A stretch of 64,000 bases of DNA, taken from an uncultured Scytonema sp. GTDB lineage: Bacteria > Cyanobacteriota > Cyanobacteriia > Cyanobacteriales > Nostocaceae. Both the position numbers and the translations under genes were made by a program. The stretch is from positions 2,487 to 66,486 of the forward strand of contig CALMVQ010000037.1 in NCBI GenBank assembly GCA_937873135.1, read 5' to 3'. Shown piece after piece: positions 2-21,699 of the stretch (positions are counted from its first letter, which is position 1; the number at the start of each line of letters is the position of its first letter). The notes beneath the pieces are model-generated. The model ran no database searches, had not been told where the DNA came from, and was given only the letters and a program-made list of their open reading frames with translations.

Positions 2-712
2 GAGTCTCCACCCATTTTTGCCCAAGCAGCAGGAGCCTCACTCACTTACATCGCGGGGATTGCGCCTAATCCTGCTGGTGAAGCTATTCTTGTTCCCCAA
101 AACTCTCCTATCAAAACAGTAGCCGATCTTAAAGGCAAAAAAATAGCTTTTCAAAAAGGTTCTAGTGCTCATTACTTTCTAGTGCAAGTTTTAGAAAAAG
201 CCGGATTGCAATATAGCGATATTCAACCCGTATCTTTACCACCAGCCGATGCCCGTGCTGCTTTTGTTAAAGGTAGCGTGGACGCTTGGTCAATTTGGGA
301 CCCATTTTATGCAGCTGCAGAAAAAAATACCAATGCTCGTACTCTAATTGACGGCACTGGAATTAACAAACAAGGTGGATTTTATCTAGCTAGTCGTAAG
401 TTTGCTAACGAACAACCGCAAATAGTTAAGGCAATGTTAGAGGAAATTCAAAAGATAGAAGATTGGTCGGATAAAAATAGAGAAGCTGTGGCAGAAACTC
501 TTGTTGCTGCGTTGGGAATTGATTTAGAATCTATGAAAAAAGCAACTTTTAGAAGAAAATTTGGTGTCGTACCAATCAATGAAAAACTGATTACCGAACA
601 GCAGAAAGTTGCTGATACATTCCATAAGTTAAAATTAATACCAAAGCAGATCGATGTGAAAGCGGCTATGCTGAAACCAGAACAATACGCTGCTCTTTCA
701 CCCAAAATATAA
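2..712 (+). CDS. ssuA: ABC-type aliphatic sulfonate (SsuA/TauA-like) substrate-binding protein; N-terminus lies outside the window
   Basis: The frame of ORF 182..712 stays open to the window edge. The translated ESPPIFAQAAG...DLKGKKIAFQKGSSAHYF aligns with the full-length paralog at 21700..22776. Confidence 0.85.
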   Translation, partial: ESPPIFAQAAGASLTYIAGIAPNPAGEAILVPQNSPIKTVADLKGKKIAFQKGSSAHYFLVQVLEKAGLQYSDIQPVSLPPADARAAFVKGSVDAWSIWDPFYAAAEKNTNARTLIDGTGINKQGGFYLASRKFANEQPQIVKAMLEEIQKIEDWSDKNREAVAETLVAALGIDLESMKKATFRRKFGVVPINEKLITEQQKVADTFHKLKLIPKQIDVKAAMLKPEQYAALSPKI

Positions 713-779
713 TATGAGTTAGTGATTAATTGTTAAAGAAGATTTAACAAACAACTAACAACCATCAACTAACAACCTT

Positions 780-1598
780 ATGACGAATCCTACTGAGTTG
801 CTAAACAGTCGTTACGGTGCTAGTGCCGTTCATGTAGATGGTTTATGGAATGACAGCTTAACAAATCTGTTATCTCACCGCTCAATTCGTGCTTATAAAT
901 CTGATCCTTTGCCGTCAGGAACTTTAGAAATTTTGGTTGCGGCGGCTCAATCTGCGTCTACTTCATCGAATCTCCAAACATGGAGTGTCGTAGCTGTGGA
1001 AGATGCAAACCGCAAAGAAAAGTTATCACAACTGGCAGGAAATCAAGCACATATTCGGCAATGTCCACTATTCCTTGTTTGGTTGGCAGATTTAGCTCGC
1101 CTGACTCAGATTGCTGAAAGTCTCGGACTAGCACATGAAGGTTTAGATTACTTGGAAATGTTCCTGATGGCAACAGTAGATGCCACTTTGGCAGCTCAAA
1201 ATGCGAGCGTAGCTGCTGAATCTCTCGGCTTGGGAACAGTGTATATCGGTGCTATGCGTAACCAACCGGAAGAAGTGGCGAAGGTACTGAATTTGCCTTC
1301 GCAAGTTTTTGCTGTCTTTGGATTGTGTGTTGGTTATCCAGATCCGGCTCATGCTGCTGCGATCAAGCCGCGTTTACCACAATCGGCTGTGTTACACCGA
1401 GAAACTTATCAGTTAGAACAATCTGAAGCGATCACTCAGTACAACGAGGTCATGAAAGCATTCTACACTGCTCAACAGATGAATATTCCTGGCGATTGGT
1501 CGGAACACTCAGTCAAACGAGTTGGTTTTGCTCAGTCTTTATCGGGACGCGATCGCCTGCGTGAAGCCTTAAATAATCTTGGCTTCCAACTGCGGTGA
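780..1598 (+). CDS. NfsA/Frp-like NADPH-dependent flavin oxidoreductase (nitroreductase family)
   Basis: 272 aa. The N-terminal HRSIRAYK motif and overall nitroreductase-fold pattern are present, and the gene sits next to sulfonate uptake genes. Confidence 0.8.
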   Translation: MTNPTELLNSRYGASAVHVDGLWNDSLTNLLSHRSIRAYKSDPLPSGTLEILVAAAQSASTSSNLQTWSVVAVEDANRKEKLSQLAGNQAHIRQCPLFLVWLADLARLTQIAESLGLAHEGLDYLEMFLMATVDATLAAQNASVAAESLGLGTVYIGAMRNQPEEVAKVLNLPSQVFAVFGLCVGYPDPAHAAAIKPRLPQSAVLHRETYQLEQSEAITQYNEVMKAFYTAQQMNIPGDWSEHSVKRVGFAQSLSGRDRLREALNNLGFQLR

Positions 1599-1911
1599 CT
1601 TTTTTAAATACATTTTGATTCTTTTGGTGGCTTTAAACACGTGAAGCTCTCTTGACGGAAGCTTCCGCCCCCAAGACTTCACTTGAATGTATGATCAGCG
1701 CAAAAATTGGCGTTGCATAATTAAAGTATGAATTTTAGCCTCACGCATAGACGCGCGACTCGGCTTCCCGTAGGGTAGGCACAAAGACGCAAAGAATCGT
1801 TGTTTAGTCATCAGGGAAAATGTAAATTCATACCTCCATTAAGCAACGCCCGAAAATTTACCTTCAGCCGGATGCCCGTAACTCATAGCTGCCTTACTTT
1901 GTAAATTGATT

Positions 1912-1927
1912 TGGCATGGTTTTTGCA
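1912..1927 (+). promoter_or_regulatory. Candidate sigma-54 (-24/-12) promoter TGGCATGGTTTTTGCA upstream of the MFS gene
   Basis: GG-N10-GC spacing is exact and the -12 element is TTGCA. It is intergenic, on the same strand as the ATG at 1965 and about 38 bp upstream of it. It matches the 8768 promoter at 15 of its first 17 positions. Confidence 0.6.
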
Positions 1928-1964
1928 CAGAGGATAAGCAAACTATCATCATCACCAAGAACCT

Positions 1965-3206
1965 ATGCCAGAAAAGCGAAACCCAAGTGAAAAGAGTTTG
2001 CACGCACTAGATTACTTGAACCTGTTTTTAGCAGACGTGCGGGATGGTGTAGGACCATATCTGAATATCTACCTCAAAGGCTCGCAACATTGGAATCCTC
2101 AGCAAATCGGGATAGCCACAGCCGCCTCCTCAATTGCTACAGTGATTGCCCAAACACCTGCTGGTGCTTTGATTGACAGATTGAGCCAGAAACGGTTGTT
2201 GATTGTACTGGCTGCTGCTATAGTCACCTGTGGTTGCTTTTTTATAGCATTGTTTCCAAATTTGCAAGTGGTCATCGGCGCTCAGGTTTTGATTGGCATT
2301 GGTGCAGCGGTTTTTCCTCCTGCCATTGCGGCGATTACCTTGGGGTTGGTGGGGAATGACAAATTAGATCGGCGAGTCGGTCGCAATGAGACTTTCAATC
2401 ATTCAGGCAATTTACTAGCTGCTACTTTGGCGGGTCTTGCTGGTCAATTTATTGCGCCCAAATCCATCTTTTTTCTGGTTGGGTTAATGGCTGTCGCCAG
2501 TGCTTTTGCAGTTGCCAGAATTCGTGAGAAGGAGATTGACCACGATTTAGCGCGTGGTGATGCAGAAGAAAGCTCTTTGGAGGAAACAGAACCTCAAGAT
2601 AAGCAAGGAGGTATATTAAAGCTATTGAGTGACCGCCGTATACTCTTCTTCGCTACAGCAGTGGTTCTATTTCACTTTGCTAATGCGGCAATGTTACCTT
2701 TGGTTGGTCAAAGACTGGCTATAGATGGTAAAGGAACAGGATTAGATGGCACTGTTTATCTGTCTGCTTGCATTATTGTCGCTCAGTTAGTTATGATACC
2801 CACGGCAAACTTTGCTGGTCGCTTAGCAGAAGGTGGGCGAAAAGGCATCTTTTTAGTGGGCTTTGGTGTGTTGCCCATTCGGGGTGTACTTTACACACTT
2901 TCGCACAATCCCTTTTTTCTGGTTTCCGTACAAATCCTAGATGGAATTGCCGGCGGTATCTTCGGTGTACTTTCGATACTGATGGTTGCTGATTTAACTA
3001 AGGGAAGTGGTCGCTTTAATCTCACCCAAGGTATGCTTGCCACCTCGATTGGTATTGGTGCAGGTTTAAGTAATTTACTGGCTGGATTTGTGGTACAAAA
3101 AGCCGGATACAATGTTGGTTTTCTGATGCTGGCGGCGATCGCTGCTGTAGCTTTAGCCGTTTTCTGGTTTCTCGTACCCGAAACTAAACAACGGATAAAA
3201 AGCTGA
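1965..3206 (+). CDS. MFS transporter
   Basis: 413 aa with about 12 predicted hydrophobic helices, a central charged loop, and an MFS-like GALIDRLSQKR motif after TM2. Confidence 0.85.
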   Translation: MPEKRNPSEKSLHALDYLNLFLADVRDGVGPYLNIYLKGSQHWNPQQIGIATAASSIATVIAQTPAGALIDRLSQKRLLIVLAAAIVTCGCFFIALFPNLQVVIGAQVLIGIGAAVFPPAIAAITLGLVGNDKLDRRVGRNETFNHSGNLLAATLAGLAGQFIAPKSIFFLVGLMAVASAFAVARIREKEIDHDLARGDAEESSLEETEPQDKQGGILKLLSDRRILFFATAVVLFHFANAAMLPLVGQRLAIDGKGTGLDGTVYLSACIIVAQLVMIPTANFAGRLAEGGRKGIFLVGFGVLPIRGVLYTLSHNPFFLVSVQILDGIAGGIFGVLSILMVADLTKGSGRFNLTQGMLATSIGIGAGLSNLLAGFVVQKAGYNVGFLMLAAIAAVALAVFWFLVPETKQRIKS

Positions 3207-3613: not shown

Positions 3614-4192
3614 TCAAAAAATAGGCAAATCTAAAACAAATTCTGGTAATACATTTTCTCCCGATAAATTTGCGGGTAATTGAACAATTTCAAAGGTTTG
3701 ATTGGGACGATAGATTTCTACTTGTTGTGCTTGGGGATTAATTAACCAACCTAACCGCAAACCACTGTTGAGGTATTCCTGCATTTTTTCTTGAAGTTGG
3801 GTCAGAGAGTCGGTGCGAGAACGCAATTCTATGACAAAATCAGGACATAATGGGGGAAACTTTTCTTGTTCTTCTGGTGTTAATGATTGCCAGCGTTCAT
3901 TAGTAACCCAAGCAACATCGGGAGAACGGTTTCCCCCATTCGGTAAACGAAATATGGTAGAAGAACTAAAGACTCTTCCCAGTTGAGTTTGACGGTTCCA
4001 CAACCAAAGTGAGCCGTTTAAATCAGCTTCTCGATTTCCACTGACTCCACCGACAGGAGGCATAATTATTAATTCTCCTTTAGTCGTTCGTTCCAATTGC
4101 CAATTTTGATTGTCTTGGCAGAGTTGGTAAAACTGCTCGTCGCTTAAGTCTACATTTTTTAAATTTAAAATTACCGTAGCTGAAGTAATCAT
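3614..4192 (-). CDS. Uma2 (DUF820) family endonuclease
   Basis: 192 aa with the GELIIMPP, SPDVAWV and PDFVIELRS motifs typical of the cyanobacterial Uma2 family. Confidence 0.85.
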   Translation of the reverse strand: MITSATVILNLKNVDLSDEQFYQLCQDNQNWQLERTTKGELIIMPPVGGVSGNREADLNGSLWLWNRQTQLGRVFSSSTIFRLPNGGNRSPDVAWVTNERWQSLTPEEQEKFPPLCPDFVIELRSRTDSLTQLQEKMQEYLNSGLRLGWLINPQAQQVEIYRPNQTFEIVQLPANLSGENVLPEFVLDLPIF

Positions 4193-4542: not shown

Positions 4543-5928
4543 TTATTGCCCATAAGTTTTTGAATCATCCAAACGCCTTCGTTTATGGGATGATTCAATC
4601 GCTGCAATTTTACGATATTTTGTCACTGTTCTGCGAGTTATTGGCAAATCAAACCTTACTCTTAAAAGTTGGGCTAGCTGTTCATCACTATAGGGATTGG
4701 TAAGTGATTCTTCTTCAATTAACTGTACGAGCATTTGTTGGATTTGTGGAGGAGTACGTCCGCCTACTAATGCTGGAACACATAGCAAATGCAACGGAAA
4801 AATTTGACTGTACGGGTTACTAATTAATATATACCGTCCCCGGACAATTCGGCTGATTGTGGAGTTACTGAGTCCTACCGATTGAGCGACTAATTGTTGT
4901 GGTGTAGGTACTAAATCTAAGCGATCGCGACTCTGCAAGAAAGCTTGCTGGCGTTCTACTAAAAATTGACCGACTTTGAGGAGATTTTCCTGCCATAGAT
5001 GTAATGCTGTAAGTAAGCTTTTTGCTTTTTTGTACAACACTTCTAGCTGTTGGGCTTCTCGCGTTCGCAGTTGAGATTTCTGCAAAAGCTCAACTGCTTC
5101 GGAATTTAGACAAAAGCGTTGCTCGACTTCAGAAGTTAAAGAAATTTGCCAACCACAAGCTGTTAATTTTGCTTTTAAATCGGGAGTTACAATAGGTGCA
5201 TTGTCATGACCAAAGTTTCTGGCAGGCCGAGGTTCTAATTCCTGAATTTCACGAATGGCGTCGTTTATTTTTTTGATATCTATATTCTGATAAGCTTGAT
5301 TTTGGAGCAACTTTTGTAGTAATATCTCACGATTAGAGCTTGCTTCTATAGAAGCACCAGTACAATTTGCTAATTCTTCTAAATACCCGTGAACTAATAG
5401 AAAAGCTAGACTTTGAGGCTTTTCTTTAAGTTGTAGTAACAGACACTCTTGTCCTGAACGAGCAGCAATTCCTGGGGGATCTAAACTTTGAAGAACAGGG
5501 ACAACTGCCTCTAATTCCCTTGCACTCCAGATACTACTACCATTTGCCCAAACGGTCGGAGTTTCTTCCAAGTATCCAGAGCTTGAGATCCATTGAGTTA
5601 AATAGATTAAAGCTTCACGTTGTCTTGATGGAATTGATAAGGCAGAGATTTGTCCAAATAGATGTTCGCTGAGACTTACGTACTGCGCGGGTAGAGTATA
5701 CCAATCTGGTAGAACATCCTCTAACAATGTTTCGCTTTTTTTCGCTAAAGTCGCATCCTCTATTAAAAATGGATTGTGTTTAGCCTCTTCCCGGACATAA
5801 TCTACTACTCGCTTCTGATCACATGGCAACAAGCGAACCAATTGCTGTAGCGTTGGATAAAGAACTGTTTGCGTTTCTAATTGTGTTTCTGTTGCAGGTG
5901 CGGCATTTAAAAAATTCATAAATTCCAT
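4543..5928 (-). CDS. rpoN: RNA polymerase sigma-54 factor (RpoN)
   Basis: 461 aa. Region I-like LQQLVRLL...EAKHNPFLIED is present. The C-terminal HTH is GLSNSTISRIVRGRY, and the RpoN box is ITRRTVTKYRKIA. An internal ATG at 5919 overlaps the upstream gene's stop as ATGA and may be the true start. Confidence 0.85.
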   Translation of the reverse strand: MEFMNFLNAAPATETQLETQTVLYPTLQQLVRLLPCDQKRVVDYVREEAKHNPFLIEDATLAKKSETLLEDVLPDWYTLPAQYVSLSEHLFGQISALSIPSRQREALIYLTQWISSSGYLEETPTVWANGSSIWSARELEAVVPVLQSLDPPGIAARSGQECLLLQLKEKPQSLAFLLVHGYLEELANCTGASIEASSNREILLQKLLQNQAYQNIDIKKINDAIREIQELEPRPARNFGHDNAPIVTPDLKAKLTACGWQISLTSEVEQRFCLNSEAVELLQKSQLRTREAQQLEVLYKKAKSLLTALHLWQENLLKVGQFLVERQQAFLQSRDRLDLVPTPQQLVAQSVGLSNSTISRIVRGRYILISNPYSQIFPLHLLCVPALVGGRTPPQIQQMLVQLIEEESLTNPYSDEQLAQLLRVRFDLPITRRTVTKYRKIAAIESSHKRRRLDDSKTYGQ

Positions 5929-7235
5929 TGCTGCTTTTTTTGCTCAAAGCTTTTGGCACAAAGTCCTAAAGCTTTGTGAGGTTCTTGGGGATAAAGAGCT
6001 AAAGCTCGGCGGATTAAGTTAAGCTCTAATTGAGCAACAGCTTGTTCCAAGTTTAAATCTATGTGGTTTTCTTGACTAAATATCAGATGCTCTGGTAATA
6101 TTGTACGCCCACCGGAAAGAATAGCTGCTCGCTCTAAAGTATTTTGCAACTCTCGTACATTTCCTGGCCAAGTATGACCTGTAAGTTTTTCCAAAGCCGC
6201 TCTTGTCATTGCGATTTTCACGCCATTACGCAAAGCAATGTAGCTTAAAAAATGTTGAGTCAGTTGCTCTAAATCTTCTAGGCGATCGCGTAAAGGCGGC
6301 AGTTCCATTCGTACCACATTCAAGCGATAATAAAGGTCTTCCCGAAATTGATTTAGGTTGACAAGCTGCTCTAAATTCCGATTGGTCGCTGCTATGATGC
6401 GGATATCTACGGTTTTGGTTTGGTTACTACCCAACCGCTCAAATGATTTATCCTGTAACACCCGCAATAGTTTCCCCTGAATCACTAAGCTCAACTCTCC
6501 AACTTCATCAAGAAATATCGTTCCACCATTCGCCTGCTCAAATCGACCGATTCGTAAATGATTGGCTCCGGTGAAGGCACCTTTTTCGTGCCCAAATAAC
6601 TCTGCCTCTAACAGATGTTCTGGAAGTGCCGCACAGTTGACTTTTACCAAAGGTCCACGACTACGAGGACTGGTAGTATGGAGAGTGGAAGCGACTAACT
6701 CTTTGCCAGTGCCTGATTCTCCGGTAATTAAGACTGTGGTATTGACTTGAGCAACTCTACCAATGAGTTTAAAGACGGATGCCATCGCAGGCGATCGCCC
6801 CAATAGTTCTTCTGGGTGTCCTAAAGCTTCGGGATTTGCTTCACCAAACTGATAGGCTAAAGCATGGGAGTGAGCTAAAGCCTTTTGAGTTAGATTGACC
6901 AAATCATCCAGAGAGAAAGGTTTAGTTAAGTAATCATAGGCTCCCAACTGTATCGCTTCAATCGCTGTACGACTTGTCCCATATGCCGTCATCACAATCA
7001 CAGGCAGTTCAAACAGTGTTTTTCCCAAAGCTTTAAGAACCTCACTCCCCTGAGTTTTGGGCATTTTCAGATCCAGAAACACTAAGTCAGGAGGAGATGC
7101 CGCATCTTGTTGAATGATCTTCAGTCCCTGCTGTCCATCTCCTGCTTCTACGACTGTGTGCCCAACATCATTAAGAATCTGCGCCATTGCCTGACGCAAA
7201 GCTTTTTCATCATCAATAATGAGAATTTTAGACAC
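5916..7235 (-). CDS. Sigma-54-dependent response regulator (NtrC/ZraR-type bacterial enhancer-binding protein)
   Basis: Receiver domain has IIDDE, FLDLKMP and TKPF. The AAA+ domain has Walker A GESGTGKE, the GAFTGA loop and IFLDEVGEL. A Fis-like C-terminal HTH is present. The GTG start overlaps the kinase stop by 8 nt. Confidence 0.9.
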   Translation of the reverse strand: MSKILIIDDEKALRQAMAQILNDVGHTVVEAGDGQQGLKIIQQDAASPPDLVFLDLKMPKTQGSEVLKALGKTLFELPVIVMTAYGTSRTAIEAIQLGAYDYLTKPFSLDDLVNLTQKALAHSHALAYQFGEANPEALGHPEELLGRSPAMASVFKLIGRVAQVNTTVLITGESGTGKELVASTLHTTSPRSRGPLVKVNCAALPEHLLEAELFGHEKGAFTGANHLRIGRFEQANGGTIFLDEVGELSLVIQGKLLRVLQDKSFERLGSNQTKTVDIRIIAATNRNLEQLVNLNQFREDLYYRLNVVRMELPPLRDRLEDLEQLTQHFLSYIALRNGVKIAMTRAALEKLTGHTWPGNVRELQNTLERAAILSGGRTILPEHLIFSQENHIDLNLEQAVAQLELNLIRRALALYPQEPHKALGLCAKSFEQKKQQWNL

Positions 7236-8706
7236 GAGTGTCTCCTGACTCCTGAGTCCTAGTTGGTAAATAAACGCTAAAAATAGTACAACCAGGCTCA
7301 GAGGTTAAACTAATATATCCTCCATGTCGCGTGACGATCTCGTGGCTAATTGCTAAACCCAACCCCGTTCCTTCCGGCTTTGTGGAATAGAAAGGCTCAA
7401 AAATTCGTTCGCGCTCTTCTGGTGACAAACCCGATCCTGAGTCTTTTACCCAAGTTACCAAATCGTCTTGCTGTTCTACACCCACCTCAACTCTCTCTCC
7501 TGCTGGACTAGCTTGGATAGCATTCAAAATTAAATTCACCATCACCTGTCCTAACTCCCGACGGCGCAGTAATATCTGGGGTAAAGCCTTAGCAGGCTCG
7601 TGATAGATGAGTGCAACTCCCTGTTCTTCTGCTGATAGACGCAGCAAGGAAACAGATTCCAAAGCGATCGCCTCTAGGGAAGTCCTCACCATTTCCTCCT
7701 CTGACTGATTTTGGTCAAAGTACATCAGTCGTTGCACCAAATGCTCTAAACGGTCTACTTGTTCTATTAAGCTAGCAGTCGGTAGAGTGGTTACCCCAAG
7801 ATTGTGGAGTTGTCGTTCTGTATACTGCAAATTCAGACGCATACTGGCTAGTGGATTGCGGACTTCATGGGCTACCCCCGCTACCAGATGTCCTAAAGAT
7901 GCCAAACGCTCGACTCGGTGTAGGCGCTGTTCTAACTCTTGGCGACGACATTGCATAGTATTAATCGCAGATCCCAACAATCCCATTTCTGCTGGTAGGG
8001 GTGGAATCAGCGAAGTTTTAGAATATTCCATCACCTTGATACTCTCATGGAGTCGCTGTACTCCCCGGTGAAGTTGTAAGGCAATATAAAAAGTCCAAGC
8101 TCCCACCACTAAATTTCCGAAAACTACCAGAAGACTCAGGACTTTTTGATCACCATCTTCGAGGCGAGGCATACGTTTCATTGTCCATACTGCTCCCCAT
8201 AAAGGTAGCGGATCTGCACGCAGTACCAAGATATCAAGACCTGATTTCCGGATTAATTCTTGGGGTAAGCCTTGGCTTGTCGCTCTCCGAGCTAATTGTA
8301 AAATTGTACTTCGCTCAACCGCAGGAATATCTTTTTTCGGGATAGGTCCTCCGTGGGTAGGAAACGCATAGCCTAATAGTCGATCTTGTTGCAGCAGGTA
8401 AAATCCCCCTTCTACTCTGGGAAAAACCGTGAGCGCTTCATTTGAGAGTTCCTCCAACTGCGTGTCTGGCTGCTTGCTTGACTTTGGTGTTTGCCCAAGC
8501 GGTAATTCCCAAAACAGCTTAATCAGTCTAGTATTGGCAAAAGTCAGTGTTCTTTGGTTTCTGGCTACCACTACACCCTCTAAACTTTGAAATAGCTGTA
8601 CTACCAGCAACAACGCAGCTCCACTTAAACCTAAAAACAGGACGCTCAGGATTGTGAGTTGCTGTCGGAGTGTCCAACTTTGGGGTAATACAAAGGGTTT
8701 CATCAC
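7228..8706 (-). CDS. Membrane sensor histidine kinase (two TM helices, periplasmic loop, HisKA plus HATPase)
   Basis: H-box GVAHEVRNPLAS, N-box LILNAIQA, G-boxes DSGSGL and GTGLGL. Hydrophobic helices lie near residues 17-40 and 190-212. Confidence 0.9.
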   Translation of the reverse strand: MMKPFVLPQSWTLRQQLTILSVLFLGLSGAALLLVVQLFQSLEGVVVARNQRTLTFANTRLIKLFWELPLGQTPKSSKQPDTQLEELSNEALTVFPRVEGGFYLLQQDRLLGYAFPTHGGPIPKKDIPAVERSTILQLARRATSQGLPQELIRKSGLDILVLRADPLPLWGAVWTMKRMPRLEDGDQKVLSLLVVFGNLVVGAWTFYIALQLHRGVQRLHESIKVMEYSKTSLIPPLPAEMGLLGSAINTMQCRRQELEQRLHRVERLASLGHLVAGVAHEVRNPLASMRLNLQYTERQLHNLGVTTLPTASLIEQVDRLEHLVQRLMYFDQNQSEEEMVRTSLEAIALESVSLLRLSAEEQGVALIYHEPAKALPQILLRRRELGQVMVNLILNAIQASPAGERVEVGVEQQDDLVTWVKDSGSGLSPEERERIFEPFYSTKPEGTGLGLAISHEIVTRHGGYISLTSEPGCTIFSVYLPTRTQESGDTRV

Positions 8707-8734
8707 ATATAGCTATCGAAGCAGATTCATAATG

Positions 8735-8750
8735 TGGCACTAACCTGCCA
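8735..8750. promoter_or_regulatory. Palindrome TGGCA-N6-TGCCA between the kinase start and the sigma-54 promoter
   Basis: A perfect 5+5 inverted repeat. GG-N9-GC spacing on both strands makes it a poor sigma-54 promoter, so it could instead be an operator. Confidence 0.3.
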
Positions 8751-8767: not shown

Positions 8768-8783
8768 TGGCACGATTTTTGCA
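8768..8783 (+). promoter_or_regulatory. Sigma-54 (-24/-12) promoter TGGCACGATTTTTGCA
   Basis: Exact match to the TGGCACG-N4-TTGCA consensus with GG-N10-GC spacing. It lies 62 bp from the divergent kinase start and 48-63 bp upstream of the in-frame GTG starts of the downstream gene. Confidence 0.7.
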
Positions 8784-8845
8784 CTATTACATTTCGGGAG
8801 CTGTATTCCATACAATTGCATTCAGGATTCGTGAGGTCGTCTTTT

Positions 8846-9820
8846 GTGAAAAATAACTCAGAAGTTCGGATTCCCAAAGAAATTGCTACAAATGTTTTTG
8901 CTCTGGCTGCTCACCTGTATGAGCAAGAAAAACAGGACTATTCCTTAGAGGAACTTATACAGGCAGGAGCCGAAGTACATATTCCAAGAGAGTTGATTCA
9001 AAAAGCTATACAGCAAATCCAAGCACAGCAAAGCTCAGTTCGCTCGCGACAGCAAAAGTTAAAATTAATCTTGATCAGTGGGAGTACAGGAGCCGCGATC
9101 GCGCTTATGAGTGTATTTGCTTACAATAGTGTTGCTAGTAACTTCATCGGAACTCAGCGATCGCCAGTAAACAATCTCCTGGCTACTGATTTGCGGAATA
9201 CTAACACTCAAGATATTCCTAACCCACTCCAACCGCCACCCCCAGTCTTCCCCAAAGCAGATGAAACGACTATGACAGGAGAGGTGCAACAATATATTCT
9301 TAACCCTGAAGGAAAGGTGGATGGACTCTTACTCAAAAATGGGTTACAAGTAAAATTTCCGCCTCATATGGGGGACAGCTTAGTAGCTTTGGTGACTCAG
9401 GGAACTAAAATCACTATTTCGGGAAAACCAGGCTTGTCTACCCGCTTTGGTGAAGAGGTAAAAGCTAGAAGCATTACTAATTCTCAAACTGGACAGACTT
9501 TAGTCGCTCAACCTCCCACCATACCGCCCCAACCGCCCGGCTTGAGCAACTACAGTACTTTATCTGTAGAGGGAACCGCCCAGCATTGGTTAGTGGGACA
9601 TAGAGGTGAGATAAATGGCGTCATTGTCTCCAATGGTGCAATTGTGAAGTTCCCACCACATGTAGGCAATCAGCTAGTCAATACGGCGAATGTAGGAGAC
9701 AAAATCCAAGCTCAAGGTTTTGGAACTCGCAACCCGGAAGGTCAGATTATACAAGCTACAGCGCTTTCTATCAATGGGCAAATCGTGTCTCTAGAACCAA
9801 AAGGCGTTGTCGATCCCTAG
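8846..9820 (+). CDS. Membrane-anchored protein of unknown function with two tandem ~80-aa periplasmic repeats
   Basis: The ORF 8759..9820 overlaps the promoter, so the start is more likely the GTG at 8846 (GAGG 9 nt upstream) or at 8831. One TM helix (LILISGSTGAAIALMSVF), Pro-rich linkers, and an internal duplication sharing a NG..VKFPPH.G..LV motif. Confidence 0.7.
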   Translation: MKNNSEVRIPKEIATNVFALAAHLYEQEKQDYSLEELIQAGAEVHIPRELIQKAIQQIQAQQSSVRSRQQKLKLILISGSTGAAIALMSVFAYNSVASNFIGTQRSPVNNLLATDLRNTNTQDIPNPLQPPPPVFPKADETTMTGEVQQYILNPEGKVDGLLLKNGLQVKFPPHMGDSLVALVTQGTKITISGKPGLSTRFGEEVKARSITNSQTGQTLVAQPPTIPPQPPGLSNYSTLSVEGTAQHWLVGHRGEINGVIVSNGAIVKFPPHVGNQLVNTANVGDKIQAQGFGTRNPEGQIIQATALSINGQIVSLEPKGVVDP

Positions 9821-9833: not shown

Positions 9834-9849
9834 TGGCATGAAAATTGCG
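9834..9849 (+). promoter_or_regulatory. Candidate sigma-54 (-24/-12) promoter TGGCATGAAAATTGCG
   Basis: GG-N10-GC spacing is exact and the -12 element is TTGC. It is intergenic and 213 bp upstream of the permease start. The -12 element is contributed by a HIP1-containing repeat arm. Confidence 0.45.
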
Positions 9850-9924
9850 ATCGCGTCTCTACGTTAAAATCCCTTCGGTAGTTTTCTTTCCTTGCGATGC
9901 CCGAAATCAAAGAGACGCGATCGC
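9847..9924. repeat. Inverted repeat GCGATCGCGTCTCT ... AGAGACGCGATCGC (14-bp arms, 50-nt spacer)
   Basis: Perfect 14-bp arms, each containing HIP1. The left arm overlaps the -12 element of the candidate promoter at 9834. Confidence 0.7.
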
Positions 9925-10061
9925 CCTTGTCTCTACACTATGCCCGAACCAGCAAAATACGGATTTAAACCGCCAAGACGCCAAGGACGCAGAGAAAGAA
10001 GGTAATAAAGATAGGTAATTTTACACTCCTGATGGGAGTCATCTAAAATCTGGGCATCCAA

Positions 10062-11246
10062 ATGATTGTTTTTAGATACATCGTCATTGTAGTGACTTAT
10101 GTCGGTTTGGGTTTAGGGTATATACCTGGTTTACGGATGAATCGAGCCAGTATTGCTCTAGTTGGTTCATCTTTGCTGATGGCATTGGGCGTTTTAGATC
10201 TTAAAGAAGCATGGGGAGCGATTGATTATAAAACGCTGATTTTCTTATTTAGCATGATGGCAATCAGCGCTAACCTGGCTTACTCTGGTTTTTTTCAACT
10301 AGTGCTGGATATGATCATGCGCTATTTCCGCAGTCCCCTTGGTTTGCTGATTGTTTTAACTTGCGGTAGTGCGATTCTCTCAGCTTTTTTTCTGAATGAT
10401 ACCATTGCCCTAATTCTTACTCCCTTGACTTTAGGCTTAGCTCAAACTTTAAACCTTAATCCTATTCCTTACTTACTTGCATTGGCGGGAGCAACTAATC
10501 TTGGTTCAGTCGCGACATTGAGTGGTAATCCTCAAAATATCTTAATTGGTTCTTTTTCTGGGATCAGCTATCTTGACTTTGCTAAAGCTTTAACTCCTAT
10601 TGCATTAATAAGTTTGTTGATTCAGATAGGTTTACTGTGGTTACTCTACCCTGATATCCGCTCTACTAAATCTTGCTTGAGTGGAGAACCTTTGCGATAT
10701 CGTGTATTCAAACCCCTACTGATTAAGAGTCTACTGATCACCGGCGGATTGTTGGTTGCATTCTTAATTGGGATACCCCCAGCCCAAGCAACACTAGTCG
10801 CAGCGGGTTTAATGTTTATCACCAGGCGAATCAAACCACAGCGAATTTTAAATAAGGTGGACTGGGATTTACTAGTGATGTTTTCTGGACTGTTTATTGT
10901 GACTGCTGGAGTGGAAAAATTAGGAGTATTGGATTTATTTGGCGGTTTTGTGCATACTCCCTTGAGCATATTAGGAGTTACTGCTCTTATGTCCAATTTA
11001 GTTTCTAATGTCCCGGCTGTATTGCTACTGAAACATTTAATTCCTCATCCAGATACAAAAACTTGGTTACTCTTAGCGGCTGGCTCTACCTTGGCTGGTA
11101 ATCTAACTTTGTTAGGTTCAGTTGCTAATTTAATTGTTGCGGAAGCTGTCGCCAAACAGGGACATCATTTGTCATTTTGGGAACATTTGCGTTTTGGCCT
11201 ACCGCTGACTGTCCTGACTCTCATTATCGCCTATTGGTGGATTTAA
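10062..11246 (+). CDS. ArsB/NhaD-superfamily (citrate-transporter-like) anion permease
   Basis: 394 aa and highly hydrophobic (about 10-11 helices). The SGNPQNILIG motif is typical of this permease superfamily. Confidence 0.8.
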   Translation: MIVFRYIVIVVTYVGLGLGYIPGLRMNRASIALVGSSLLMALGVLDLKEAWGAIDYKTLIFLFSMMAISANLAYSGFFQLVLDMIMRYFRSPLGLLIVLTCGSAILSAFFLNDTIALILTPLTLGLAQTLNLNPIPYLLALAGATNLGSVATLSGNPQNILIGSFSGISYLDFAKALTPIALISLLIQIGLLWLLYPDIRSTKSCLSGEPLRYRVFKPLLIKSLLITGGLLVAFLIGIPPAQATLVAAGLMFITRRIKPQRILNKVDWDLLVMFSGLFIVTAGVEKLGVLDLFGGFVHTPLSILGVTALMSNLVSNVPAVLLLKHLIPHPDTKTWLLLAAGSTLAGNLTLLGSVANLIVAEAVAKQGHHLSFWEHLRFGLPLTVLTLIIAYWWI

Positions 11247-11437: not shown

Positions 11438-14245
11438 CTACAACCCTCTCATAATGATTCCATCCTTAGCACGCATATAAAGCACGGGTGTGGCAAAGTC
11501 GCGTTGCTCCAATCCGACTTCTATAGAAATGGCATTGCGGGTTGTTTGGATAGCTGCGTCAACTGGCCAACCAAGTGCTAGAGTACGGTAGAACTCCGAA
11601 GCGAACAGTTTGGCAGTAGTATCGTAGATGGAGTATTGCATAGAGACTACTGCGGGAATTAAGCGACATACTAAGTTAGGCGCTATACCAGCAAGGGCTT
11701 GCGAATTGGACACTGTTGCACCTTGACAGGAATTTAGTACTACTAATCCCAAATTGTTGTCACCCAAGAAGAAGTTGGCAAAGCGCTCATCATCCAATCT
11801 TTCTTCTTTGCCGTTTTCGTCTACGAGAGAAATATAACCTTTATTGTTCTCAAAGATACCATGACCGATAAAATGGAAGACATTGTAAGGCTTTTCGCGT
11901 AACTTTTGGTTAATGTTGCGGATAGTGGGTTCAGGCAGTACATCTAATTGAATTGTACCTGCTTCTAGATGTTTTGCTAGTGCAGAGCGAAGCAGTTTTT
12001 CTTCTCCATCAACATCCAATCGTGGTAAATCAGTTGGACTAGAGATGACTAACAGAATGAGGAGTGGCGAGCTACGAGGTTTAAGTTCGCGCTTTTTTAG
12101 GGGAATGTCAATATAACGCGAGAGTACGGTTCGGGTGTCATTTGCTAGAAAAGTCTCAGTTCGTTCGTCGTAGAGAAATTCCCACGGTAGGGTAGCTAAT
12201 TCGGGAGATTCAAACACCAAGCGCAGGCGCACATTATAATTATTTTCTTCTGCACCTGCCATTGTAGCCCGTAATTGACCGTAAATATCCATGGGGAAAA
12301 GCGCTTTGTAGAGTTTGCCGCCTAATCCTTTGAGTAAATCTTCATCTGTTTGTCCCTGCTCTATCAGTTGTAATGTCAGTTTAATTTCATTGATATCCAA
12401 CCGTAATTCGCCCTGTTCTTCCCCTTGTTCAGAGTCAACGCGAATTTTTTCGTCTTTCGTCACCAATACTTGAAAATCCTGGTAATTCATGGTATAGTTG
12501 TCTCTTGCAAAAGATAAAGATTCGTCTCTATCAAGCTTCAGTTCCCGTTGTAACGGTGTAGATTGGCGGTTGACTTCCCGATTTTCTTCAAGCGGTAGCG
12601 GACTAACATCGTCAATTAGCCTGCGCACATCGACTATTTCATAGCTAATTTCGCATTCAACTTGATATCGACCAGCATTTAAGCGCTTCCGCAATGAGTC
12701 CAGAGAATAAGTATGCGGAGTCTGACTTCCCTCACAGGTAGTGCAGTTGCAAGGAACAAGTGTGTTATACTGCAAACGTTCAAAAGACTGATGAATTTTT
12801 TCTAGTTCGTGAGTGACGACTGCTAGCAAGTCTTTCTTACGGTTTCCGGCAACACGGATTTTGATTTCCCTCTGATTATAGTCTTCAATGATTTCGGCAC
12901 GAGATTGATCTTTGTTGAGGACAACACCACTTCTCCAAACGAGGTTTTGCTGTTCAATCCAAGGGTGTGTCTCAACAATGAAGCGGGTGAGAATACCTTT
13001 GGGCATGAATTCGTATTTGTAGCGTAAAATGAGATTATTCGTATCGTCCCAAGTGTAGTCGGGTTGGTTGATATTAAGTAGTTGTGGTGCAATATAGTGA
13101 TTAGGACGATTGGGAATTGGGTAGCAAAGTTTGAAGCGCATCATAAGTTGGAGTAACTCATCTCGCATATCAGTATATTCGCCGTCAAGCCAAATTTCAG
13201 CAAGATTATTCTGAGTAAAACACCCCAGATTTTCCCTAACGGTTTTGTTGTCTAAAACTTTGTAAACGGCAGTTGTACCCCATTCTGGTTTGAGAATGAT
13301 ATAGTGTTTAAGTGTAGGATCGTCTTGAAAGTGCAGGCAAACGCCTAAATCGTGCAGATAACGACTCAACCGCAACATATCTTCGCGATCGCTTAAACTA
13401 TTCTGTAGGCAAAGTTGGTAGTATTCATCCTGACTGATGTAATTGCGGGAATCATTTTCTAAGGCATAACGGACTTTTACCCAGAGTTTTGGCAAAAGTT
13501 GACCAACGTGGGGAAGCCGACTAATATATGTTTGAATATTTTCTTTAATTTCGTCTAAACCGCGATTAGTAGCTAAGTTAGTTGGGAGAATTTCTTTGAG
13601 GTGAGCGAATTCTCCACGCAAGGAGCGATCATTAACCTCGCACTGACGGTCTTGTTTTTCATTTTTAATAATTAGAACCGGGCTATTGTCGTTTAAGAGT
13701 TCGGCAACCTTGAGCCACCAGTAAAAGTCGGTGTTTTGTGTGCGAGTATCAGCGACTAAAGCGTACAGAGAACGCTTAGTAAGGAAAAACTGGTGGGTTT
13801 GGTGGTAAATTTCTTGCCCGCCAAAATCCCAAATGTTGACGCGAAAGTCTTTGCCATTAGGTTGTGTGAAATGCCACTGAATCACATCAATGCCTGAAGT
13901 TGATTTTTCATCCGATTGAAGTTTGTAGCTTTCATTTTTAATTTTCTTGGCTAAAGAAGTTTTACCAGATCCCCCTTCACCAATAATTAAAAATTTGGCT
14001 TCATAAAAAGGTTCAGTTTCGGATGGATCTTGCACCCGAAAATAGAAATCAAGAATTTCCTTCACATCACCTGGATCTTCATTTAGGTTTTTTGAACCCA
14101 AAATCTCAGGTGGAATCGGCACTGGGTTCCCATGCAAATCCAGTTTTTTCAGCTTTGGTATTTGCCTAATTTCTGATGGCAGACTGCTCAGTTGATTGCT
14201 CTTAAGCTTTGGGAAAACTAGTGCCGCAAGGCGGAAGTCACTCAT
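11438..14245 (-). CDS. ROCO-type GTPase (residual LRR, Roc, COR) fused to a C-terminal CHAT (caspase-like) protease domain
   Basis: 935 aa. LRR remnant is NQLSSLPSEIRQIPKLKKLDLHGN. Roc P-loop is GEGGSGKTSLAK, with WDFGGQE as the switch II motif. The CHAT His/Cys dyad is FIGHG (H795) and LNSCQG (C840). Confidence 0.85.
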   Translation of the reverse strand: MSDFRLAALVFPKLKSNQLSSLPSEIRQIPKLKKLDLHGNPVPIPPEILGSKNLNEDPGDVKEILDFYFRVQDPSETEPFYEAKFLIIGEGGSGKTSLAKKIKNESYKLQSDEKSTSGIDVIQWHFTQPNGKDFRVNIWDFGGQEIYHQTHQFFLTKRSLYALVADTRTQNTDFYWWLKVAELLNDNSPVLIIKNEKQDRQCEVNDRSLRGEFAHLKEILPTNLATNRGLDEIKENIQTYISRLPHVGQLLPKLWVKVRYALENDSRNYISQDEYYQLCLQNSLSDREDMLRLSRYLHDLGVCLHFQDDPTLKHYIILKPEWGTTAVYKVLDNKTVRENLGCFTQNNLAEIWLDGEYTDMRDELLQLMMRFKLCYPIPNRPNHYIAPQLLNINQPDYTWDDTNNLILRYKYEFMPKGILTRFIVETHPWIEQQNLVWRSGVVLNKDQSRAEIIEDYNQREIKIRVAGNRKKDLLAVVTHELEKIHQSFERLQYNTLVPCNCTTCEGSQTPHTYSLDSLRKRLNAGRYQVECEISYEIVDVRRLIDDVSPLPLEENREVNRQSTPLQRELKLDRDESLSFARDNYTMNYQDFQVLVTKDEKIRVDSEQGEEQGELRLDINEIKLTLQLIEQGQTDEDLLKGLGGKLYKALFPMDIYGQLRATMAGAEENNYNVRLRLVFESPELATLPWEFLYDERTETFLANDTRTVLSRYIDIPLKKRELKPRSSPLLILLVISSPTDLPRLDVDGEEKLLRSALAKHLEAGTIQLDVLPEPTIRNINQKLREKPYNVFHFIGHGIFENNKGYISLVDENGKEERLDDERFANFFLGDNNLGLVVLNSCQGATVSNSQALAGIAPNLVCRLIPAVVSMQYSIYDTTAKLFASEFYRTLALGWPVDAAIQTTRNAISIEVGLEQRDFATPVLYMRAKDGIIMRGL

Positions 14246-16115: not shown

Positions 16116-18323
16116 TCAAAGACCAGCGATTACAGAATCACCGGGAGCCACCGTTGCATCTAGAGTAGTGATTAGAGGCAACATTAATGTGAACGTGGTT
16201 CCCTGATTTTTGCCTTCACAGACAGCCGTAATGGTGCCTCCATGTAACTTGACAAGGTGATGGACAATTGCTAATCCAAGTCCCAAGCCTGCTTTTGTTT
16301 TGCTGCTTGCGTCCTCTGCTTGCCGAAAGCGGTCAAAGATGTACGGCAAAAATTCAGGCTCAATCCCCTTACCTGTATCAATCACTAGGATCGTAGCCTG
16401 GGATGGAGAGTAAGTCAGCAGGACTTCTACCCGCCCACCTTCTGGGGTGAACTTAATCGCGTTGGAGAGGAGATTGCAAACTATCTGCTGCAAGCGGTTG
16501 GGATCTGCCAAAACTTTGCCTAAGCAAGGGGCAATTATTGACTCCAAGCGAATCTGCTTGGCATCAGCCGCCAACTGTAAGTCATCAATCGCCGCTTGGA
16601 TCACTGGAGGCAAATCGATTGGCAATAACTGTAGCCGAATCTTACCTTGTACAATGCGAGTGACATCAAGCAAGTCTTCAATCAGTTGAGACTGCATTTC
16701 GGCATTGCGCTTAATAGTCTCCAAACCACGAGTGACGATTATTTCATTCTGTCTCTGCTTTAAGAGCAAGCGTGACCAACCCAGCATTGCGTTGAGCGGG
16801 GTGCGTAACTCGTGAGAGAGTACAGCGATAAATTCGTCTTTGCTAGTATTTGCCGCTTCTGCTTCCGCCCTTGCTGCTTGCTCACTCACAAAGAGTTGAG
16901 CGCGTTCTATTTCTGCCTGTTTACGAGCGGTGATGTCTTGGCTAACTGTCGCGATGCCAATGGGCCGACCTGTTTTTGGATCTTTAATGGCGAAGATATT
17001 GGAGTAGACTGGAATTGCCATTCCGGTTTTCAAGTGCCGGAACCGGAACTCACCAACCCATTGCCCAAGTTCATTCATAGCAGGAATAATCTGCTCCTGA
17101 AAATAAGCTAGATCTTCTGATGTGAAATATTCCGAAACAGGCCTTGGCTTCACCGCTTCATCGCCATCCAGCCCGACAAGCTTTTGTCCAGACTCATTGA
17201 TAAAGAGAATCTGACCCTCCCAGGTGGTAATGCCAATAAAGTCAGGACTGTTTTCAATCACGAGGGCGAGTTTTTGCCGCTCTTCCTCAATGCGATGGCG
17301 TTGAATGCCAAGGGCTATTCCATTTGCTACTGAGTCGAGGGCTTGAAGAGTTGTTTCTGCAAGTGGGGCGCGAGAAAACATTGCCAACACTCCCATCAGT
17401 TGGTCTTCGACCACTAGGGGGTAGCCAGCAAACGCCACCATTCCTGATTGCTTAGCCCACTCCTGGTCATGAATCTCACCATCACCGACGACTTGATTCG
17501 TTAAGTGAGGCTTACGGTTTTGAGCAATGCGTCCGATCTTAAACTGTCCTACGGTAATACAACTGTGAGGACCGTCAATATGGGTGTACAGCCCTGAACT
17601 TGCTTGTAATTCCAGTGTATTCGCTGCTTGATTCAGGGTCCAGATGCGAGCAAAGGCGGCACCCAGATGCCGAACTACAGCCTCGGTACACTCAGATAGC
17701 ATTTCCTGGAGTGAATAGCTCTGATTTAAAGACAGACTGACATCCTTAATGAGATCGGCTAAACGCGATCGCTCCAGTAGCACTTGCTGATTCTGCTTAA
17801 GTTGGACTTCAGCGAGACTCACTTGACGTGCCGCAAGGCGGAGTTCGAGTTCATCCACCACTATTGCGGCTAAGTCATACAGTGTGGCACGTTGCTCAAC
17901 CGTTAAGTCCTGGCGGGGTTGGCTATCTACCAAACACAACGTCCCTAGATTGAAGCCATCATGCGTGACGAGGGGAGCAGCCGCGTAGAACCGAATTCCC
18001 GGTTCACTCAGGGCAAATGGTTTGTAGGCGAAGCGAGGGTCCTCTCTGGTATCGGGAACCACTAAAACAGTGGGGGTTAAAATTGCAAAACTGCAAATGG
18101 TAGCATCGCGACTAATTTCAGTGTTTTCAAAGCCATAGGAAGACTTAAACCAGGCTCGGCGCTCATCGACAAAAGAAATTAGAGCAATTGGGACACCAAA
18201 TAATCGCGCCGCCAGGGCTGTAATTCGGTCAAAGCTGGCTTCAGGTGGAGTCTCCAGGACTTTGTAACTTCGCAGAGCCTCTAAGCGGCTTTTCTCATTG
18301 GATGGCTTGGGCGCATTCGTCAT
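16116..18323 (-). CDS. Multi-domain sensor histidine kinase (GAF-GAF-PAS-HisKA-HATPase)
   Basis: H-box SHELRTPLNAM and G-boxes DTGKGI and GLGLGLAIV are present. The N-terminal LEALRSY...DRIT motif is typical of GAF sensors. The likely start is the ATG at 18323 (MTNAPKP); the longest ORF extends to 18428. Confidence 0.85.
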   Translation of the reverse strand: MTNAPKPSNEKSRLEALRSYKVLETPPEASFDRITALAARLFGVPIALISFVDERRAWFKSSYGFENTEISRDATICSFAILTPTVLVVPDTREDPRFAYKPFALSEPGIRFYAAAPLVTHDGFNLGTLCLVDSQPRQDLTVEQRATLYDLAAIVVDELELRLAARQVSLAEVQLKQNQQVLLERSRLADLIKDVSLSLNQSYSLQEMLSECTEAVVRHLGAAFARIWTLNQAANTLELQASSGLYTHIDGPHSCITVGQFKIGRIAQNRKPHLTNQVVGDGEIHDQEWAKQSGMVAFAGYPLVVEDQLMGVLAMFSRAPLAETTLQALDSVANGIALGIQRHRIEEERQKLALVIENSPDFIGITTWEGQILFINESGQKLVGLDGDEAVKPRPVSEYFTSEDLAYFQEQIIPAMNELGQWVGEFRFRHLKTGMAIPVYSNIFAIKDPKTGRPIGIATVSQDITARKQAEIERAQLFVSEQAARAEAEAANTSKDEFIAVLSHELRTPLNAMLGWSRLLLKQRQNEIIVTRGLETIKRNAEMQSQLIEDLLDVTRIVQGKIRLQLLPIDLPPVIQAAIDDLQLAADAKQIRLESIIAPCLGKVLADPNRLQQIVCNLLSNAIKFTPEGGRVEVLLTYSPSQATILVIDTGKGIEPEFLPYIFDRFRQAEDASSKTKAGLGLGLAIVHHLVKLHGGTITAVCEGKNQGTTFTLMLPLITTLDATVAPGDSVIAGL

Positions 18324-18600
18324 CGTTTCTCCACAGATCTCCCTAATGAAGGAATTTAGCTTGTCGTCTTTCAGCCTGATATCCCTACCACAACGTGTTG
18401 AACAATAAGTCCATCTTAGGATAGACATAGCTTTATTTCCTAATCAGCAAAGAAAATTTGCTTCGGAACAATGATTGGAACTTACGCACTTTACAAATTA
18501 ACTCTTGTGTGCGTAAAGATCTAGCGTTAACTTCTGTACGAGCAAGTATTTCCCATTTCTATCTCACTCATGCATAAGTTGATTTTGCTTGCATTTAATC

Positions 18601-19240: not shown

Positions 19241-19357
19241 AGGTAATTCTAATATTTTACATTTTGTCGCATAGTTACGTTTTTTCTCTTCGACCTACTT
19301 TATAGTTACCGTTTTTACCTGTGCAAGGCTTAACACTTGGAGGTTTTTTTGACAGAT

Positions 19358-20167
19358 ATGGAATCTGAATGGGGAATGCATTTAAAACTTGAAAGGCTGA
19401 AAAAGTCCTTCGGATCTCTACCAGTCTTGCGAGGCATAGATTTTGAGGTGATGCCAGGAGAATTTGTCGCAATTGTCGGTCGCAGTGGATGTGGCAAGAG
19501 TACAATGCTACGCCTGATTGCAGGACTAGACTCTCCAGATGCAGGGGCTGTATTTCTGGATGATAGACAATCCCATTGTCGGATCGGTCCAAGAGTACGG
19601 ATGATGTTCCAGGATGCCCGTTTATTGCCTTGGCAACGGGTACAGGCGAATGTGGAGCTAGGCTTGCTTGGCTCGAAACTGTTTGTGCGGCAAACTGCTT
19701 TACAAGTTCTCCGCTCTGTAGGATTGGAAGATCGCGCTCAGGATTGGCCTGCTGTACTTTCTGGCGGACAACGCCAACGGGTGTCTTTAGCAAGAGCATT
19801 GGCAAGTAAACCCTCTTTGTTGCTTCTAGATGAACCTCTCGGTGCTTTAGATGCTTTAACTCGGATTGAGATGCAACAATTAATCGAAGGTTTATGGCTC
19901 GAACAGAAATTTACTGCACTGCTGATTACCCATGATGTAGAAGAAGCTGTGGTTCTAGCAGATCGAGTTGTACTAGTGGAAAACGGTCAGATCGCTATGG
20001 ATTGTCCAATTTCCCTTCCGCGTCCTAGAGTTAGGGGAAATGCAGTCTTTGCCCAAACAGTAGAACACATTTTGCAGCGTGTAATGGGCAAATACGAAAG
20101 CAATCAAAGCAGATTTCAGTACTCAGAAGCCAATAGACAGAGTGAGTTCTCTATAACTGGCAGATGA
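19358..20167 (+). CDS. ssuB: Aliphatic sulfonate ABC transporter ATP-binding protein
   Basis: Walker [10 protein letters not shown], signature LSGGQRQR, Walker B LLLLDEP. The start is ambiguous (TTG 19337, ATG 19358 or ATG 19376). Confidence 0.85.
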
Positions 20168-20204
20168 ATAGTCAGTCATTCCAAACAACTAACAATTAAC
20201 AATT

Positions 20205-21392: not shown

Positions 21393-21437
21393 CGCTCCTA
21401 CAAGGTATACAAGCATACAGTGTAGTAGTCTGTCAAG

Positions 21438-21677: not shown

Positions 21678-21699
21678 CTTCATTCAATAGCGTCAACTC

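Follow-up and report, generated by a model that had tools for sequence, protein, structure and literature searches.

The element described here is a 17-nt sequence, TGGCATGGTTTTTGCAC, at positions 1912..1928 of the forward strand (16-nt form TGGCATGGTTTTTGCA, 1912..1927) in a 64,000-nt stretch of DNA from an uncultured Scytonema sp. (contig CALMVQ010000037.1; this whole stretch is called the window below). By its sequence it is very probably a real promoter of the sigma-54 (−24/−12) type, serving the gene of a major facilitator superfamily (MFS) transporter that starts at 1965. It is likely that the promoter depends on sigma-54 and belongs to a small regulon placed beside its own regulators, namely a sensor histidine kinase, an NtrC-type activator and a divergent sigma-54 factor, RpoN. 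Site 1912 is in itself an unremarkable example of a thoroughly known class of promoters; the interest of the finding is the host phylum and the compact cassette with a dedicated sigma factor. The sites and the gene on which the argument rests are as follows:

1912..1928, forward strand: sigma-54-type promoter (very probable) of the MFS gene, TGGCATGGTTTTTGCAC; evidence from consensus, cross-genus position weight matrix (PWM) and conservation.
1937..1939, forward strand: predicted transcription start, 11-13 nt past the −12 C by standard sigma-54 geometry.
1965..3206, forward strand: MFS_1 transporter gene, 413 aa (Pfam MFS_1, 9e-45).
8768..8784, forward strand: twin sigma-54-type promoter, TGGCACGATTTTTGCAC, of the gene starting at 8846; 33.1 bits with the PWM, and conserved.

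The promoter site and its twin

The −24 GG of site 1912 was located at 1913-1914 and the −12 GC at 1925-1926, with a spacing of exactly 10 nt, and the site is an exact match to the extended consensus TGGCAYG-N4-TTGCW; the perfect GG-N10-GC spacing with a TTGCA −12 element, claimed in a preliminary description of this DNA, is thereby borne out. The site lies in an intergenic region of 366 nt (1599..1964; nitroreductase gene 780..1598 on the other side), in the orientation of the MFS gene and 37 nt (measured; about 38 bp in the preliminary description, which had also placed it between genes and on the correct strand) from ATG 1965. A start at 1937..1939 would give the MFS gene a leader of about 27 nt. 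The twin TGGCACGATTTTTGCAC agrees with site 1912 at 15 of 17 positions, as direct comparison confirmed, and the minus-strand genes of the kinase, the activator and RpoN stand between the two sites.

Occurrences of the exact consensus TGGCAYGNNNNTTGCW were counted in the window and compared with expectation (64 kb, both strands, base composition); two were found, 0.023 expected. The looser pattern TGGC-N7-TTGCW was not enriched in the window (3 found, 1.5 expected), and significance therefore rests on the full consensus; the 17-mer with three mismatches allowed was not enriched in the window either. A PWM was trained on 15 sites from other genera only, to prevent circularity, and the window was scanned with it: site 8768 scored 33.1 bits, site 1912 scored 32.8 bits, and the third-best position 7.4; the null, taken as the best score in each of 40 simulated 64-kb sequences, had a mean of 12.2 ± 2.8 and a largest value of 18.0. 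A chance origin of the two sites is excluded. In favour of a functionless chance match it could be said that short GG-N10-GC patterns are common and that TGGC-N7-TTGCW is unenriched in the window; the count of the full consensus, the excess of site 1912 over the null maximum (32.8 against 18 bits) and the conservation of the site at orthologous positions in four genera leave this explanation a negligible probability, and it is effectively refuted already.

The proteobacterial sigma-54 (−24/−12) consensus was reportedly given by Barrios et al. in 1999 as YTGGCACGrNNNTTGCW. With canonical promoters of that group the present system shares GG and GC 10 nt apart, the TGGCAY and TTGCA elements, the position upstream of and co-oriented with the gene, and the presence of an AAA+ activator with a GAFTGA motif; it differs in its cyanobacterial host, in the extended −12 region of the clade consensus (TTTTGCAC) and in having no detectable upstream activator site.

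The locus in other cyanobacteria

Motif 1912 was found to be identical in three Rhizonema metagenome-assembled genomes (MAGs). In Rhizonema, the sequence from 3 nt before the −24 element through the ATG is nearly identical in four genomes, and unrelated DNA stands further upstream in two loci (L001 and L002; loci are numbered with L throughout); since the replaced DNA of these two ends about 3 nt short of the −24 element, the boundary of conservation lies at the promoter.

More distant rpoN loci were taken from Stigonema (L006), Nostoc DSM 114159 (L007), Scytonema hofmannii PCC 7110 (L008), Chroogloeocystis (L009), Thermoleptolyngbya (L010), Calothrix (L011), Nostoc TCL240-02 (L012) and Microcoleus (L013). 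Kinase, activator and rpoN genes have the same order and strand in all eight, with inserted genes only in Microcoleus (L013 11507..15845: HNH, IS605 OrfB and Y1 transposase genes, which adjoin the genes of the kinase and the activator or separate them). The motif was located in these loci at the following positions:

Before the MFS orthologue (54-74% identical): L007 14514, L008 13166, L012 13958.
Before the orthologue of the 8846 gene (48-68% identical): L007 6752, L008 7230, L012 7149, L013 9022.
Before the kinase operon: L007 7013, L008 7290, L012 7213.
Before a few other adjacent genes: L012 16560, L010 12202 and 12233, L011 11385, L009 2946, L013 9064.

Close and distant relatives taken together, the MFS-promoter motif is present before the MFS orthologues in L001, L002, L003, L007, L008 and L012, and the 8768-type promoter is conserved in L002, L003, L004, L006, L007, L008 and L012. 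In total, 22 sites in 12 loci have the core TGGCAY(G/A)NNTTTTGCAC, all co-oriented with the downstream gene and 26-212 nt from its start codon; the variable positions of the core are those that vary in the general sigma-54 consensus too, and the flanks of the motif are unalignable between genera. The window and Nostoc L007 are separated by a synonymous divergence (dS) of 0.8-1.3, and still only three changes are seen among the 17 positions of the MFS-promoter core; a 17-mer free of constraint would have been lost at such divergence. Chroococcidiopsis sp. CCNUC1 served as control: its MFS orthologue (66% identity) is without an rpoN neighbour within 10 kb, and no such motif was found in 21 kb. 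Genes for the MFS transporter, an anion permease and the 8846-type protein (with two predicted oligonucleotide/oligosaccharide-binding, OB, folds) adjoin rpoN in Nostoc, Scytonema and Microcoleus; the proposal of the preliminary description, one local regulon on both sides of the sigma-54 operon, is supported by these loci. Three features escaped that description: the cyanobacterial host, which makes the system unusual, the lack of a recognisable DNA-binding domain in the activator, and a weaker third site at 9834.

Strong sites with the same motif (L012 16560..16575, minus strand; L010 12202..12248; L009 2946..2961; L011 11385..11400) precede other genes adjoining rpoN, among them an operon whose last gene is that of an OFeT_1 iron permease, a divergent pair by an OmpR-type regulator and a methyltransferase/TonB-receptor cluster, so that the content of the regulon differs between lineages. 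In Stigonema (L006 6700..7125) the promoter motif is kept with no OB-protein gene behind it.

Transcription of the MFS gene by a sigma-70-type polymerase from TTTGCA (1922)-16 nt-TATCAT (1949), with the GG-N10-GC element incidental or serving as a second promoter, is unlikely. This hexamer pair overlaps site 1912 and matches the consensus at 9 of 12 positions, which tells against a sigma-54 promoter, and sigma-70-family factors serve all described cyanobacterial promoters (PMC11119718). The sigma-70 scan, however, gave a chance-level result (3 sites, against 3.5 in shuffles); TATCAT is not kept before the MFS orthologues in L007, L008 and L012, where the GG-N10-GC core is kept; and the identical core before other cassette genes is left unexplained. 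A weak basal sigma-70 promoter could coexist with the sigma-54-type site 1912.

A further site was found in the window between the OB-protein gene and the gene of a CitMHS/ArsB-type permease:

9834..9849, forward strand: tentative third sigma-54-type site, TGGCATGAAAATTGCG; one mismatch to the consensus, GG-N10-GC.

It is kept in Rhizonema L002 and L003, and it is marked as tentative because the cross-genus PWM gives it only 5.8 bits, below the null maximum. Upstream of the kinase gene (8734..8750, minus strand) stands TGGCAGGTTAGTGCCAC, in which the spacing is GG-N9-GC, one nt short, and which varies in L003 and L004; a proper TGGCAYAGTWTTTGCAC precedes the kinase operon in Nostoc and Scytonema. 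The Rhizonema lineage thus seems, from the sequences compared, to have lost sigma-54 autoregulation of the kinase operon. The palindrome TGGCA-N6-TGCCA at 8735..8750 was considered as an activator site or as a minus-strand promoter of the kinase operon and was rejected (GG-N9-GC, unconserved in L003 and L004). At 27177..27192 (forward strand) TGGCACTAGAAATGCA was found ca. 150-180 nt ahead of a gene for a PstS-like phosphate-binding protein; its PWM score (4.5 bits) is below the null and the site is probably a chance match. A site at 53855, likewise below the null and inside an open reading frame of the opposite strand, was treated in the same way.

Sigma factor, activator and kinase

The regulators are encoded on the minus strand between the two promoters:

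4543..5928, reverse strand: rpoN, a divergent, cyanobacteria-specific sigma-54 by its sequence, 461 aa (Pfam Sigma54_AID, CBD and DBD).
5916..7235, reverse strand: NtrC-type response regulator/activator (bacterial enhancer-binding protein, bEBP); receiver (REC) domain, AAA+ domain with GAFTGA, AAA-lid domain.
7228..8706, reverse strand: sensor histidine kinase; HisKA and HATPase_c domains.

The Pfam scores of RpoN (AID 29.7, CBD 114.7, DBD 98.7 bits) all exceed the cut-offs. Residues 85-453 align to solved sigma-54 structures (K. pneumoniae/E. coli); the helix-turn-helix (HTH) STISR and the RpoN box TRRTVTKYR (vs ARRTVAKYR) are kept, and Region I is short, with LQQLVRLL. A search of 5.8 billion proteins gave a clade of about 93 clusters (45-94% identity), every named one cyanobacterial: Rhizonema, Stigonema, many Nostoc, Brasilonema, Scytonema hofmannii PCC 7110, Chroogloeocystis, Chroococcidiopsidaceae, Calothrix, Thermoleptolyngbya and Leptolyngbya; beyond the clade, identity falls abruptly to about 30% (Nitrospinae, Nitrospirae). 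Proteins of 84-94% identity were obtained only from three Rhizonema MAGs and one Iningainema MAG, all Nostocales (scan, one genome per species), and the clade was found on no PLSDB plasmid (best match 31% identical). The ratio of nonsynonymous to synonymous divergence (dN/dS) of RpoN is 0.23-0.33. As judged from such sequence data, the protein is a real but divergent sigma-54 and is under purifying selection.

The activator gave Pfam matches to Response_reg (3e-29) and Sigma54_activat (6e-72). Between cyanobacterial orders its sequence identity is 70-88%, and neither GAFTGA nor the receiver residues D55 and K105 vary. A Fis-type HTH_8 domain is absent from it: no Pfam match was obtained at E<=0.001 with the whole protein or at E<=10 with the isolated tail. 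This C-terminal tail of 44 aa (within 5916..6050), LEQAVAQLE..LIRRAL.LYP...H.ALGL....F.QK..QWNL, is conserved in five of eight relatives; the first helix of the tail can be aligned to the beginning of HTH_8 in an acidobacterial homologue, and the tail resembles a Fis-type HTH of which only a degenerate remnant is left. The other three activators (Stigonema, S. hofmannii, Nostoc TCL240-02) stop just past the AAA lid, and their loci retain the promoters. The N-terminal sensor region of the kinase is membrane-associated and matches no family. AtoS and AtoC were the top NCBIfam matches of the kinase and the activator; ZraS and ZraR were among the best.

The conservation of this HTH_8-derived tail in five of the eight relatives, together with the fact that no other binding site for it was found, would suit an explanation in which the 17-mer is not a sigma-54 site and serves as the operator of another DNA-binding protein, for instance of the vestigial tail itself. 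Such an operator is very unlikely: the motif has no dyad and is strictly directional (each of the 22 sites faces the downstream gene), the positions that never vary in it coincide exactly with the −24 and −12 elements of sigma-54 promoters at their obligatory spacing, and it is kept in loci whose activator is without the tail.

With the 17-mer taken as a sigma-54 promoter, the way in which the activator would reach it was considered. The upstream activator sequence that is usual (not obligatory) ca. 80-150 nt upstream was not found at site 1912, which fits an activator without a DNA-binding domain. Upstream sequences (−200..−4) of 19 promoters were searched for shared 8-mers; the sole recurrent word was the reverse complement of the divergent promoter. 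The activator probably works without an enhancer, engaging the polymerase from solution; this weakest part of the model is inferred from HTH_8 being only a remnant or absent, from the lack of a shared upstream word and from the interchangeable upstream DNA.

Activators without a DNA-binding domain are represented by FlgR of Helicobacter pylori and CtcC of Chlamydia. In common with these the present system has REC and AAA+ domains without a functional HTH, few or single activators per genome, and activation presumed to occur from solution; it differs in that FlgR and CtcC serve genes of the flagellum or of late development, that they are not transcribed together with rpoN, and that a 44-aa HTH remnant remains in most of the cyanobacterial activators. 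The ZraP/ZraSR system (E. coli, Salmonella) likewise has an operon of a histidine kinase and a sigma-54 activator divergent from the gene of an envelope-facing protein. The intergenic region is bound by ZraR, which unlike the cyanobacterial activator carries a DNA-binding domain of the Fis type; rpoN is located away from that operon, ZraP is soluble and periplasmic and not a membrane-anchored tandem-OB protein, the ZraSR regulon is without transporter genes, and the kinase-proximal motif has decayed in the window. In Nostoc and Scytonema, the sigma-54 type of both divergent promoters, as assigned from the motif, implies autoregulation. DctB/DctD-dctA (rhizobia) and AtoS/AtoC (E. coli) are cases of two-component sigma-54 control of a solute-uptake gene, in which, as proposed here, a kinase and an NtrC-type activator switch a neighbouring secondary transporter through a −24/−12 promoter; DctD and AtoC, in contrast, bind upstream enhancers, the sigma factor is encoded outside the locus, and the transporters are of other families.

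Several points weigh against the assignment of site 1912 to a sigma-54 regulon with an activator acting from solution. RpoN scores 222.8 bits with the NCBIfam equivalog model TIGR02395, below its cut-off of 277.35, and Region I is weakly conserved, many members of the clade being without a Pfam AID match. The activator tail, kept in five of eight activators and homologous to the start of HTH_8, makes residual DNA binding possible, and the genes of the three short activators may have been miscalled or truncated. The 8-mer search, in which no upstream word was shared above shuffled controls among the 19 promoters, is a crude method. To our knowledge, the use of the cyanobacterial core polymerase by a sigma-54 has never been demonstrated, and no promoters, activators, regulon, transcriptome, start-site or mutant data for a cyanobacterial sigma-54 were found in the literature.

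In the favoured model, polymerase carrying the locally encoded sigma-54 would bind the −24 GG and the −12 GC and form a closed complex unable to open by itself. The histidine kinase would sense an envelope or solute signal and phosphorylate the receiver domain of the activator, whose AAA+ ring would then touch sigma-54 through the GAFTGA loop, probably contacting the polymerase from solution rather than from an enhancer; ATP-driven opening of the promoter would follow, with a start near 1937-1939. The same switch would drive the 8768 promoter (tandem-OB membrane protein) and possibly site 9834 (anion permease).

Target genes, origin and meaning of the cassette

Besides the MFS gene, two putative targets lie on the forward strand:

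8846..9820, forward strand: cassette-specific membrane protein, 324 aa; start GTG 8846 after GAGG, fixed by alignment.
10062..11246, forward strand: CitMHS/ArsB-type anion permease gene, downstream of site 9834.

The MFS transporter has only distant matches in the PDB (NorA, VGLUT) and a dN/dS of 0.11-0.24. The 8846 protein consists of a helical N-terminal part, a transmembrane segment and two predicted OB-fold domains; it gave no match in Pfam or PDB sequence searches. Its AlphaFold2 model (predicted local distance difference test, pLDDT, >90 over residues 140-320) has two OB folds behind a membrane anchor, and Foldseek matched it to tandem-OB SSB and RPA proteins, at the level of fold only. 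The family comprises 55 clusters, with named members all from cyanobacteria, of genera that are also found in the rpoN clade. In Nostoc, the permease gene comes next after the MFS gene, sharing its strand and lying behind the MFS promoter, which indicates that the two transporters are functionally linked. The leader of the permease gene in the window folds no better than shuffles (z = −0.49), and no RNA family reaches the Rfam threshold in the window; a 14-bp inverted repeat (9847..9860 / 9912..9925) that carries two HIP1 sites was noted in this leader, with no T run after.

A Uma2-family endonuclease gene (3614..4192, reverse strand) is found between rpoN and the MFS gene; the transporters follow rpoN more directly in Nostoc and Scytonema. 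Sulfonate-utilisation-like genes (NMT1-type binding proteins, ABC ATPase and permease, luciferase-like monooxygenase, FMN reductase, acyl-CoA-dehydrogenase-like protein, nitroreductase) flank the cassette on both sides (182..1598 and 19337..25569), with a Roc-COR-CHAT protein (11438..14245) and a GAF-PAS kinase (16116..18428) encoded between the cassette and the second group. The cassette could have been inserted into a sulfur-scavenging cluster.

Sigma-54 was absent from all 29 cyanobacteria sequenced at the time of a 2011 survey (PMC3162934), and cyanobacterial genomes carry only sigma-70 genes according to a 2024 paper on their sigma factors (PMC11119718); a single sentence of a 2025 regulon survey places rpoN in Gloeocapsa PCC 7428 and Leptolyngbya O-77 (PMC12316311). 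In the window, the HIP1 octamer GCGATCGC occurs 39 times (0.35 expected), and 10 of the 39 are inside 1.5-10 kb, as dense as in the rest; the window is accordingly cyanobacterial (Rhizonema-like by its RpoN relatives), and the cassette has been resident for a long time.

This equal density of HIP1 tells against a further explanation, in which the promoter is a genuine sigma-54 promoter by descent and the cassette is an inactive relic of horizontal transfer, incompatible with the cyanobacterial polymerase. The patchy distribution of the cassette would agree with a relic, as would the IS605 and HNH insertions in Microcoleus, the loss of the OB gene in Stigonema, the decay of the kinase-proximal motif in Rhizonema and the only moderate constraint on RpoN (dN/dS 0.23-0.33). 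It is decidedly unlikely, since the ca. 93 RpoN clusters form a cyanobacteria-only clade over several orders with domains intact, and the promoter cores are kept where neutral sites are saturated; a dead module would lose 17-nt non-coding islands.

An acidobacterial locus of Pyrinomonadaceae (L015 3071..8150) was compared with the window. Genes for a kinase, DMT_6, MFS and an activator with full HTH_8 were found in this order, with 59% (MFS), 45% (activator) and 37% (kinase) identity to the window proteins; the locus contains no rpoN and no consensus −24/−12 site with up to two mismatches. A transporter is linked with a two-component system in both loci, so that this link exists outside the cyanobacteria; the full HTH_8 of the L015 activator is the difference. 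Homology of the whole module with that of the window is plausible. L015 may be related to the cyanobacterial module or may have been its donor, the donor relationship being speculative because L015 is without a consensus site. That transporter and two-component system were acquired jointly by horizontal transfer, along with a sigma factor new to the recipient, is suggested and not demonstrated.

Returning to the likely reading of site 1912 as a sigma-54-dependent promoter, a wider interpretation is held with some confidence, as the rather more probable one: some cyanobacteria would carry a portable, self-sufficient module, in which a co-transcribed kinase, an activator without a DNA-binding domain and a dedicated divergent sigma-54 control only a handful of neighbours (MFS transporter, anion permease, tandem-OB protein); in Nostoc and Scytonema, the regulators may be transcribed from a −24/−12 promoter of their own. 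If this is true, sigma-54 acts here as a single-purpose sigma factor of the extracytoplasmic function (ECF) type and not as a global one, and it must work with the cyanobacterial core polymerase and its split beta-prime subunit, in a phylum described in reviews as sigma-54-free.

With the sites described above, a neglected cyanobacterial clade of sigma-54 has for the first time a concrete set of promoters and a candidate regulon; the clade includes culturable strains (Scytonema hofmannii PCC 7110, Nostoc sp. TCL240-02, Nostoc sp. DSM 114159). Three questions are made testable: whether sigma-54 drives the unusual cyanobacterial core, how a promoter is found by an activator without a DNA-binding domain, and what signal turns on the two transporters, the strains being in many cases lichen or plant symbionts. 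A tightly off, activator-dependent promoter without cross-talk in the host could also be of use as an orthogonal switch for cyanobacterial engineering.

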